DNA of 64,000 bases, from the sequence record PP274704.1; one strand, given 5' to 3'. Within the stretch, counting starts at the first letter, position 1. Every line of letters starts with the position of its first letter. This document shows positions 42,121 to 48,765 of the stretch, in pieces. A program made the position numbers and the translations under genes. The DNA is from Escherichia phage ECp13. The notes below the pieces were generated by a model. That model saw nothing but the letters and a program-made list of their open reading frames with translations, had not been told where the DNA came from and ran no database searches.

Positions 42121-42636
42121 ATGAATATTTGTTTAGGTACTACAATTCCGCAGGGCTACGTAATTGATGTCACTACCTGGGAAAATGATGGTGACAACTA
42201 TAAAACTAAAACACTGTTTGACGTAGAAGAGCATGAAATCTTACAATTTCAGTATCTTTTAAAGAAGTTTAAAAGCAGATATTCTAGTACTAAAATTGAG
42301 CGCTATTGTGGTAATGGTTTGTTCAGCGAGCAATCTCTTTTTATTTATGAATACTTGGTTGAAGGACTGTTCTCAGACCAGCTTTATCCAGAATTCATTA
42401 AAAAGGTCTTTCGCATAGAAGTTGATCTTGGTAATAAATCTGAAGAAGATGAAGAACGTGTATTTGACTTATTCTTTGTGAATGGTAATAAAGTGCTTGA
42501 AGGACTTATTAATATTTTAGGTAATGCTTCTGAGTATTATGATTATGATTTTTTGCGTGTAGTTGAGAGTGTTAAATACTCTTATATAGAAGAAGAAATT
42601 GTTTTGCCGACAGTTAAAATGTTTAATTTGCTTTAA
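42121..42636 (+). CDS. hypothetical protein
   Basis: 171 aa from ATG 42121 (track starts at a GTG at 42112); acidic segments. Confidence 0.5.
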   Translation: MNICLGTTIPQGYVIDVTTWENDGDNYKTKTLFDVEEHEILQFQYLLKKFKSRYSSTKIERYCGNGLFSEQSLFIYEYLVEGLFSDQLYPEFIKKVFRIEVDLGNKSEEDEERVFDLFFVNGNKVLEGLINILGNASEYYDYDFLRVVESVKYSYIEEEIVLPTVKMFNLL

Positions 42637-42720
42637 GAATTATTTGTTATTATTAACTCATATCGCACTGATTAATACCCTCTATCATCAAGGGTTCTTG
42701 TTTGAGAGCCTTTGTTAATA

Positions 42721-42781
42721 ATTTTGGTAGAGCGCCTGATTTGGGATCAGGAGGTCCAAGGTTCAAATCCTTGTATGGAGA
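42721..42781 (+). pseudogene. tRNA-Pro(UGG) 3' fragment (5' acceptor and D-arm missing)
   Basis: Intact anticodon arm (CCTGA-tttggga-TCAGG, anticodon TGG), variable loop, T-arm (CAAGG-ttcaaat-CCTTG) and 3' acceptor TATGGAG; no complementary 5' acceptor or D-stem upstream. Confidence 0.5.
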
Positions 42782-42783
42782 CT

Positions 42784-42883
42784 GGAGGCGTGGCAGAGTG
42801 GTTTAATGCACCGGTCTTGAAAACCGGCAGTCGCTCCGGCGACTCATACTAGGTCGTAGGTTCGATCCCTACTGCCTCGACCA
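42784..42883 (+). tRNA. tRNA-Ser(UGA), type II with long variable arm, CCA encoded
   Basis: Acceptor GGAGGCG, D-arm GCA-gagtggtttaa-TGC, anticodon arm CCGGT-cttgaaa-ACCGG (anticodon TGA), variable stem GTCGC/GCGAC, T-arm GTAGG-ttcgatc-CCTAC, 3' TGCCTCG-A-CCA; immediately follows the Pro fragment as in the T4 Pro-Ser pair. Confidence 0.6.
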
Positions 42884-43051
42884 AACAAGAAACCGGGTCG
42901 CTACCGGTAAGTCGTCGGACTGATGTTCCCTGGAGTATAGTTCCTCCCACAGTTTTACTGTGTTCTGGTTCTTTACTATCACAGCTGAAACGGCGCACCG
43001 AATTATCGATTCGAGGAAATATCTTTGCCGTAAGCCGAGTAGCGTTTTTGA

Positions 43052-43143
43052 CGGAACGTTCGGATATGGTCGAGATATGGCCTTTTAAAAATATTGAGTA
43101 GCGTCAACTGCTTAATAACCGGGTTCGAATCCCGGCGTTTCGT
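43052..43143 (+). ncRNA. tRNA-like element (acceptor stem plus canonical T-arm), possible stable small RNA or degenerate tRNA
   Basis: CGGAACG (43052-58) pairs with CGTTTCG (43136-42); T-arm CCGGG-ttcgaat-CCCGG; no canonical anticodon arm; lies in a 630-bp ORF-free stretch. Confidence 0.3.
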
Positions 43144-43195
43144 ACAAACACTTGCCTTAGCAGGTGGAACCCCGACAAGGTTGCCGCAAGGCTTA

Positions 43196-43222
43196 GCCCC
43201 GACCGAAAGGTTGGGGCTTTTT
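43196..43222 (+). terminator. intrinsic terminator closing the tRNA/small-RNA region
   Basis: CCCCGACC-gaaa-GGTTGGGG hairpin followed by CTTTTT. Confidence 0.65.
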
Positions 43223-43224
43223 AG

Positions 43225-43232
43225 TATAAATA
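43225..43232 (+). promoter_or_regulatory. late promoter (TATAAATA) for the IP-like gene at 43273
   Basis: TATAAATA on plus strand, 41 nt upstream of the ATG. Confidence 0.55.
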
Positions 43233-43272
43233 TAGTAGTATATTAAATCCACGAATTAAAACAGGAAATAAG

Positions 43273-43746
43273 ATGAAATCATATGCTCAATTTTTAAATG
43301 AAGCGGTGTTAAATGAAGCATCTAGCACCGAAATTCAAGCCGTCGCAAAAGCAGCCATTGCAGCGGGTAAATATTCCTATAAAGATGCTTCTGACGAATC
43401 ACGATTCCAATTTGCTCGCGACATGAAAGCAGAAGGATTTACGGGAAATGCGGTTAGTATGGCCTGGAAAAGTCTAGTTGCTACTGGCGCTGCTTTTGCA
43501 AAGGCTTCGGGTAAACCTGCTCCTAAAGCAGATCCTAAAGCTGCACAAGAAAAAAATATCGTTAAAGGAATTATCGCTAAATATGAAGCTATCCTTAAAG
43601 AGCTTTTAGTAATCAAAACCGAAGGCCAAAAGTTAGCCCGTGCTTATAGTTTCAAAGATAATCCACATGTTCACTCTCTTGAGTATGTTGAAGACATTCA
43701 AAAAATTATTAAAGACCGCATTTGGTCTGCTAAACAAATCAAATAA
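43273..43746 (+). CDS. internal-protein-like protein with capsid-targeting-like N-terminus
   Basis: 157-aa ORF; MKSYAQFLNE-A resembles the 10-residue T4 IP targeting sequence ending in an L-x-E cleavage motif; late promoter upstream. Confidence 0.6.
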   Translation: MKSYAQFLNEAVLNEASSTEIQAVAKAAIAAGKYSYKDASDESRFQFARDMKAEGFTGNAVSMAWKSLVATGAAFAKASGKPAPKADPKAAQEKNIVKGIIAKYEAILKELLVIKTEGQKLARAYSFKDNPHVHSLEYVEDIQKIIKDRIWSAKQIK

Positions 43747-43755
43747 CATTCTTAA

Positions 43756-43782
43756 CCCCGACCAAAAGGTTGGGGCTTTTTG
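43756..43782 (+). terminator. intrinsic terminator (second copy of the 43196 hairpin)
   Basis: CCCCGACC-aaaa-GGTTGGGG followed by CTTTTT, 10 nt after the IP-like stop. Confidence 0.65.
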
Positions 43783-48348: not shown

Positions 48349-48765
48349 ATGACTCGTATTAATTTGACTTTAGTATCTGAACTTGCTGATCAACATTTAA
48401 TCGCAGAATACCGTGAACTGCCGCGTGTTTTTGGTATAGTTCGTAAACATGTTGCAAATGGTAAGCGGGTTAAAGATTTTAAAATATCTTCCGAGTTTAT
48501 TTTAGGTTCTGGTCATGTCACGTTCTTTTACGATAAGTTAGAATTTTTGCGAAAGCGTCAATCAGACATTATAACGGAATGCTTAAAACGTGGGTTCAGT
48601 ATAAAAGATACTGAAGTTCCTGACATCAGCGATATTCCAGCAGAATGGAAAAATGATTATAATCCATGCAAATCAGCTATTAAATTGAGCCAACAACGAC
48701 TCGATGAAAAAATTTTAATGAAGCCATACTGGTATAAATACTACGGTAAAACTATTTACATTTAA
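48349..48765 (+). CDS. denV: endonuclease V (pyrimidine dimer DNA glycosylase)
   Basis: 138-aa [31 protein letters not shown]...; length and sequence recognised as T4 endonuclease V. Confidence 0.92.
48733..48740 (+). promoter_or_regulatory. late promoter (TATAAATA) inside 3' end of denV, serving the downstream IP gene
   Basis: TATAAATA 35 nt upstream of the IP ATG at 48775. Confidence 0.55.

Follow-up and report, generated by a model that had tools for sequence, protein, structure and literature searches.

The tRNA region of Escherichia phage ECp13 contains about 310 bp (42884-43195) that lack an evident protein-coding gene, which raises the question of what, if anything, is encoded there. 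The window, i.e., the whole 64-kb stretch of DNA that was analyzed, represents a Tequatrovirus (T4-like) segment and is about 99% identical around this locus to Shigella phage Sfk20 and its relatives. A sequence-only reading of the same DNA had reported that no open reading frame (ORF) of at least 60 amino acids is present. Indeed, none overlaps 42884-43195, the longest ORFs having 50 aa (43094-43246, + strand) and 49 aa (42849-42998, − strand), and the span free of ORFs of at least 60 aa is wider than first drawn (42637-43272). As candidates for the content of this span, a degenerate tRNA and the counterparts of two T4 RNAs had been proposed. The latter, rnaD and rnaC, are small stable RNAs of phage T4 and have been known since the 1970s.

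Features were placed by aligning the window with T4 and Sfk20 in a three-way comparison and by pairwise mapping, and all of those located in the window are given on the + strand. In the T4 reference (NC_000866), tRNA-Arg is followed in transcription order by rnaD ("species 2 RNA," 119 nt; T4s002, 71053-71171) and rnaC ("species 1 RNA," 139 nt; T4s001, 70908-71046). The window shows the order of the T4 annotation, i.e., tRNA-Arg, rnaD, rnaC, terminator. The 3' part of tRNA-Arg (42849-42883), comprising T arm, acceptor 3' strand, discriminator, and CCA, is 100% identical to Sfk20 (L001 2377-2412). The rnaD orthologue, identified by alignment to the T4 annotation as a T2-type allele of 115 nt (42885-42999), starts 1 nt after the CCA of tRNA-Arg and ends 6 nt before rnaC, a position like that in T4. 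It is followed by the spacer GAAUUA (43000-43005; AAAUUA in T4) and the 139-nt rnaC orthologue with a predicted cloverleaf fold (43006-43144), the latter being assigned by T4 identity, a covariance model match, and covariation. Downstream of rnaC, a 50-nt 3' trailer (43145-43194), nearly identical in T4, contains a hairpin of 7 bp (43149-43166), and part of the terminator stem is repeated in it. The unit ends at an intrinsic terminator (43195-43223) with a 10-bp stem, a GAAA loop, and a U run, which is conserved in T4.

At the sequence level, rnaC matches its T4 counterpart at 137 of 139 positions, ungapped and over equal length; one of the two substitutions is located in an internal loop, and through the other, U-A becomes U-G at a pair of the 10-bp arm. 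For rnaD, conservation covers the first ~40 and the last ~22 nt (alignment blocks of 37 and 22 nt with one mismatch), and the central arm (approximately 42925-42977) is of the T2 type and cannot be aligned by sequence with that of T4. Since both homology and gene order match T4, 42884-43195 is very probably the orthologue of the T4 rnaD-rnaC locus, a judgment that includes the folds described below. The proposed correspondence to the two stable small RNAs of T4 is thus borne out by rnaC, by both ends of rnaD, and by their location behind tRNA-Arg. Judged from the sequence, rnaD and rnaC appear to be the final two genes in the tRNA operon of the phage, which would extend up to the terminator at 43195-43223. 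Such a locus is an already known kind of feature and ordinary for genome annotation. In T4, RNAC and RNAD are classed as late RNAs, and a Northern blot with a probe for RNAC has been published (PMC9697503). It is for T4 only that RNAC has been shown as a stable RNA of ~140 nt, and the 58-nt RNAC oligonucleotide published in that study is, by eye, identical to 43006-43063 of the window (PMC9697503).

Inspection of the flanks revealed that no intact tRNA gene is left in the adjacent cluster and that rnaD and rnaC are untouched. Three segments of Sfk20, which carries 10 tRNA genes, are absent from the window, two of them being tRNA deletions. The first (L001 1585-1848) spans tRNA-Gln to the 5' part of tRNA-Pro (window junction 42723/42724), and the second (L001 1975-2376) reaches from tRNA-Ser, whose 3' part is lost, into tRNA-Arg, which lacks its 5' part (junction 42848/42849); both junctions show 0 to 2 nt of microhomology. 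The Rfam tRNA model still matches the remnants, namely a 5'-truncated tRNA-Pro (42710-42781, 30.3 bits) and a Ser(5')/Arg(3') chimera (42784-42880, 49.4 bits), in which six of seven acceptor pairs can form by eye. The deletion junctions were not found as contiguous sequence in any record of the phage collection, and the tRNA-Ser/Arg junction is absent from IMG/VR. The third segment (L001 2413-2776) carries a 116-aa ORF (phrog_3355) between tRNA-Arg and rnaD. This ORF is present in Sfk20, BW-1, T2, BMB16, and G4498 and lacking in the window and in T4, and represents a presence/absence polymorphism at a spacer of 1 to 4 nt (window 42884-42887). The flanking genes fall only in PHROGs families of unknown function.

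Trailer and terminator together fold better than shuffled sequences (z = −3.3). The hairpin that terminates the rnaC unit (CCCCGACC-loop-GGTTGGGG followed by a T run; 43195-43223) recurs at the end of the next gene (43756-43780), and its partial copy in the rnaC trailer reads CCCCGAC..GGTTG (43170-43184, with CCCCGAC at 43170-43176). Directly after the terminator and ahead of the ORF at 43273, a sequence resembling a T4 late promoter, TATAAATA, was noticed by eye at 43225-43232. Likewise by eye, a MotA-box-like sequence, TTTGCTTTA, with TATTAT 12 nt downstream, was seen at the stop codon that ends the ORF preceding the tRNA remnants (42627-42653). A sigma-70 scan of the + strand reported nothing at 43225-43232 or 42627-42653.

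Furthermore, we analyzed the distribution of rnaC and found it in 745 phage records, many of which are 100% identical to the window; identity is at least 95% in 680 of them. The gene is annotated by name in records including RB3, RB10, Aplg8, and ATK47/48. Homologues from Tequatrovirus, Karamvirus, Kanagawavirus, Gelderlandvirus, and Mosugukvirus are without exception located within a tRNA cluster, typically with tRNA-Trp on one side and tRNA-Gly on the other, and differ in length by 1 to 2 nt (138 to 141 nt). Nineteen distinct sequences from these five genera of Tevenvirinae were aligned (A4) and used to build a covariance model (R1); with this model, rnaC was detected in the window exactly once, at 157.9 bits. 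A weak R1 match at 48436-48529 (15.7 bits, E = 0.12) is almost certainly due to chance. A search of metagenomes with a degenerate pattern for rnaC yielded 34 loci with 11 true rnaC copies, 10 of which score like Tequatrovirus copies, the remaining one being lower scoring and more G+C rich; little diversity was therefore gained.

The alignment allowed us to examine the fold of rnaC. The 3' strand of the acceptor, CGUUUCG (43136-43142), pairs with the extreme 5' end of the RNA, CGAUUCG (43007-43013), over seven positions with two U.U mismatches, so that the whole 139-nt RNA is predicted to form a four-armed, tRNA-like cloverleaf. In this model, the acceptor is followed by a long arm of 70 nt in the D-arm position (43014-43083) with the tip loop UUGACG (43048-43053), an A-rich linker, a second arm (43092-43117) with a 10-bp stem and the 6-nt loop CGUCAA (43102-43107), and, after a single nucleotide, a T arm (43119-43135) that stacks directly on the acceptor 3' strand. 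The long arm and the 10-bp arm thereby stand where a tRNA has its D and anticodon arms. The perfect T arm, CCGGG-UUCGAAU-CCCGG, had already been recognized from the sequence and is found exactly as described. The predicted fold has an energy of −50.2 kcal/mol (z = −4.55), which none of 200 shuffles reached, and the minimum-energy fold of the window sequence differs from the RNAalifold consensus by no more than one or two additional pairs at the ends of helices.

Comparison of the 19 sequences supports this model, with 94.2% of the cells being paired. Compensatory changes occur in 25 of 44 pairs, compared to 8.9 ± 1.8 in shuffled alignments (0/500 reached 25), and at most seven compensated pairs remained when the 3' partners were slid by one to three columns as a control. 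In the long arm (helices 2 to 5), 15 of 22 pairs are compensated, and in the second arm (helix 6), 7 of 10 are. In the acceptor, the pair 43009:43140 is AU in nine sequences, GC in nine, and GU in one; in the T arm, the middle pair is G-C in 11, U-A in 7, and U-G in 1. The two acceptor U.U mismatches are present in 18 of the 19 sequences, the exception being phage PM2 (L008), in which both are replaced by U-A, giving a perfect 7-bp stem. The T-arm helix is also kept with other loops, i.e., UGCAUGC in Kanagawavirus-like phages (L004, L010, L022, L024) and UUCGGUC in PM2, and strict T-loop identity is therefore dispensable in some lineages. Both these noncanonical loops and the acceptor mismatches count against tRNA mimicry by rnaC, the loops weakening its strict form.

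The loops of the two long arms, UUGACG and CGUCAA, are perfectly complementary to each other and identical in 18 of the 19 sequences across the five genera, and their cores, GACG and CGUC, are found in all 19. In PM2, the exception, the second loop is one A shorter and the first loop has a change at the U that would match this A. These loops could engage in a kissing interaction or constitute a shared binding or recognition site. A four-arm, tRNA-like structure supported by covariation is thus proposed for rnaC over five genera, for which no Rfam family exists.

For rnaD, 10 distinct variants were aligned (A5). The window carries an allele that also occurs in T2, AugustSocin, Sfk20, and BW-1 (98 to 100% identity for T2, AugustSocin, and Sfk20). 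Across the variants, the first ~48 and last ~25 nt are shared, the central ~50 nt are hypervariable, and positions ~25 to 48 are invariant though only partly paired. We folded five variants with widely differing central arms as well as that of BMB16, a point variant of the window allele; in all six, a 5' hairpin, a terminal stem, and a long irregular rod were predicted. The 5' hairpin, ACCGG-GUCGCUA-CCGGU (42892-42908), has 5 bp and a 7-nt loop, and its closing pair is A-U in seven, G-C in two, and G-U in one of the 10 sequences. The rod ends in an apical hairpin, CACAG-UUUUA-CUGUG (42948-42962), the local hairpin singled out in the sequence-only reading, with its strands located precisely at 42948-42952 and 42958-42962. 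The fold energy of rnaD is no better than that of shuffled sequences (z of about −0.9). Compensated pairs amount to 10 of 33 versus 5.9 ± 1.5 in shuffles (2/500), and the covariation score is 0.226 versus 0.120 (0/500), with slid partners giving at most 0.088. In BMB16, a double change (C>U plus G>A) keeps the pair 42943:42968. Folding and covariation thus indicate that rnaD consists of a 5' hairpin and a long irregular rod in which sequence varies and pairing is kept.

A published evolution experiment touches this rod. Three of three lines of phage BW-1 evolved on the semi-permissive strain ECOR34 share the single nucleotide polymorphism (SNP) 164264 T>C, which was placed in rnaD (PMC12685909). 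In BW-1 (L026, OR125554.1), this SNP corresponds to A>G on the RNA strand and is homologous to position 42960 of the window, i.e., in the apical hairpin. The ancestor reads CACAG-UUUUA-CUAUG and the evolved lines carry CUGUG, as do all six natural T2-type alleles sampled (window, Sfk20, T2, BMB16, G4498, and L012), so that the SNP appears to be a reversion that would restore a Watson-Crick pair in the apical hairpin. Its nature as a reversion was not remarked on by the authors (PMC12685909). The change being shared by the three lines could reflect standing variation in the stock instead of three independent events. This SNP is the sole functional hint on rnaD and rnaC. As the only experimental-evolution change reported at the locus, repairing, by this reading, a base pair of rnaD, it offers a concrete and cheap genetic test of a host-specific role.

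In classical T4 work by McClain, Abelson, Apirion, and colleagues, rnaC and rnaD were reportedly transcribed together with the tRNAs, the species 2/species 1 precursor is said to be cut by RNase P and further host RNases, and the tRNA region is reportedly dispensable in laboratory hosts. By analogy to this work, a processing route by host tRNA-maturation enzymes is likely. Both RNAs would be transcribed with the tRNAs as one precursor and excised by these enzymes; RNase P would recognize the stack of acceptor and T arm and generate the 5' end of rnaC, which would also free rnaD. Trimming at the 3' side would follow the RNase P cut, and the compact folds would let rnaC and rnaD accumulate as stable RNAs. 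As to function, it is possible, albeit doubtful, that rnaC mimics a tRNA and thereby ties up a tRNA-binding factor of the host or the phage, with both RNAs serving as host-dependent accessory factors; the loops UUGACG and CGUCAA would lend such a mimic specificity. An accessory role fits the reported dispensability of the tRNA region in T4 and selection on the rnaD hairpin specific to ECOR34. We regard as rather unlikely the further-reaching combination in which rnaC is a dedicated tRNA mimic and rnaD a host-range modifier acting through the hairpin at 42948-42962. Here, the complementary rnaC loops would kiss and shape the molecule or would bind a tRNA-acting host factor, candidates being a tRNA-targeting defense nuclease or a tRNA-modification or processing enzyme. 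The apical hairpin of rnaD would be needed on some natural E. coli strains, as hinted by the BW-1/ECOR34 reversion. If this were true, rnaC and rnaD would represent an RNA-based counter-defense or host-tuning module overlooked since the 1970s.

Alternatively, both RNAs might be functionless by-products, either tRNA-derived relics that are kept by processing and stability or cis-acting processing spacers and a terminator module of the tRNA operon. We consider this unlikely but worth weighing, as the hypervariable center of rnaD and the reported dispensability of the T4 tRNA region in laboratory hosts both point in that direction. Furthermore, decades have passed without any function being found (PMC3014915), and the functions of T4 RNAC and RNAD are stated as unknown (PMC3014915, PMC9697503). 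The conservation of rnaC speaks against it, i.e., its presence in five genera with 25 compensated pairs and near-invariant loops, and at least 95% identity in 680 of 745 records. The BW-1 reversion, moreover, indicates selection on a base pair of rnaD. That rnaD and rnaC are intact where tRNA genes were deleted is a weak argument, since the deletions look recent.

A role as trans-acting antisense RNAs, in which rnaD or rnaC would bind mRNAs of the phage or the host through conserved segments left unpaired, is improbable. Positions ~25 to 48 of rnaD, invariant yet only partly paired, would suit such a role, and in T4 both are abundant late RNAs (PMC9697503). However, no complementarity of at least 13 nt to either strand was detected in the other 63 kb of the window, and matches of 11 to 12 nt occur at chance level within it.

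The view that rnaC harbors a degenerate or unusual tRNA originates from a 92-nt element, closed by a stem of CGGAACG (43052-43058) with CGUUUCG (43136-43142), one pair being G.U, that had been described as a tRNA-like module. Its T arm and acceptor 3' strand stand, and the stem can form in the sequence; the stem is not maintained in evolution, and the partner of the 3' strand is 43007-43013. Thus, the stem proposed earlier (43051/2-43058/9 with 43135/6-43143) has a covariation score of 0.054 versus 0.097 in shuffles, and its fourth pair (43054:43140) is broken in 8 of the 19 sequences. We rejected 43052-43058 as acceptor partner because it lacks covariation, whereas 43140 covaries cleanly with 43009. 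The aligned sequences indicate that the tRNA-like module is not a 92-nt sub-element and that its closing strand is the true 5' end of the 139-nt RNA, as expected if RNase P makes that end.

As a tRNA, this element of 92 to 95 nt (43051/2-43143) would carry a long extra arm or insert, with ACGGAACG paired to CGUUUCGU. Besides the stem and the perfect T arm, such a reading can cite that in phage PG7 the homologous 95 nt (L003 1546-1640) come out as "tRNA-Met (cat)" with ARAGORN and are so annotated in GenBank, and that a "tRNA-Lys" is annotated beneath the rnaC match in phage G4507 (NC_054919). In the window itself, ARAGORN found neither a tRNA gene nor a tmRNA over the whole 64 kb. The covariance model search that had been suggested gave no Rfam family for either RNA at the gathering score or at E up to 10. 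The tRNA model (RF00005) had no match within 42884-43195 even at E up to 10, tRNA-Sec (RF01852) reached 16.6 bits compared to a gathering score of 47 (E = 3.6, chance level), and the matches to isrK and anti-hemB were at chance level too; Rfam 15 thus holds no family matching rnaC or rnaD. In addition, a start at 43051/2 would fall inside the annotated 139-nt mature T4 RNA. A tRNA is therefore very improbable, the degenerate tRNA suggested earlier does not hold, and the "tRNA-Met" call on the 95-nt sub-element of PG7 is best read as a false positive.

Least credible of all are small protein-coding genes: ORFs of 42 aa (42960-43088) and 50 aa (43094-43246) as well as minus-strand ORFs do exist, and hypothetical proteins are annotated over rnaC or rnaD in CHD16UKE1, UFV10, FL12, and G4498, but substitutions track base pairing and not codons, the 1- to 2-nt length differences among the rnaC homologues (138 to 141 nt) would break reading frames, the ORFs start with GTG or TTG, and the locus is annotated as RNA in T4, RB3, RB10, and ATK47. 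Public annotations are inconsistent, with tRNA-Met on part of rnaC (PG7), tRNA-Lys (G4507), and hypothetical coding sequences in many Tequatrovirus records. With the identification as orthologues of the T4 RNAs, the proper label for this stretch is rnaD plus rnaC rather than hypothetical proteins or an odd tRNA.

Transfer RNA-like modules are known from other non-coding RNAs, namely the bacterial Y-RNA-like YrlA, the tRNA-like domain of tmRNA, mascRNA, and the TMERs of gammaherpesvirus 68. In these, a mimic of acceptor and T arm inside an RNA that is not a tRNA lets tRNA-processing enzymes excise and stabilize it. The arm layout of rnaC differs from theirs, and no Ro or SmpB partner is implied; neither rnaC nor rnaD is similar to any Rfam family beyond chance at E up to 10, and no tmRNA was called by ARAGORN. 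Class II tRNAs and tRNA-Sec (RF00005, RF01852) likewise have a 7-bp acceptor stacked on a 5-bp T arm with the UUCGAAU loop. The rnaC arm that ends one nucleotide before the T arm resembles the long variable arm of class II tRNAs, which are also encoded in tRNA operons. In contrast to these tRNAs, rnaC has a 70-nt arm instead of a D arm and lacks a 7-nt anticodon loop, has no encoded CCA, contains two U.U mismatches in the acceptor, and is recognized neither by the two covariance models nor by ARAGORN.

The nearest described counterparts are the T4 genes themselves. The ECp13 rnaD differs from that of T4 in its central arm, a T2-type allele, and in length (115 versus 119 nt), but lies in the same place, 1 nt past the CCA of tRNA-Arg, and has the same build of a 5' hairpin plus rod. 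For rnaC, ECp13 is set apart by two substitutions and by upstream tRNA genes that are mostly deleted; it is otherwise the same gene as in T4, with the same length and the same predicted fold, and it likewise closes the tRNA cluster ahead of the same terminator.
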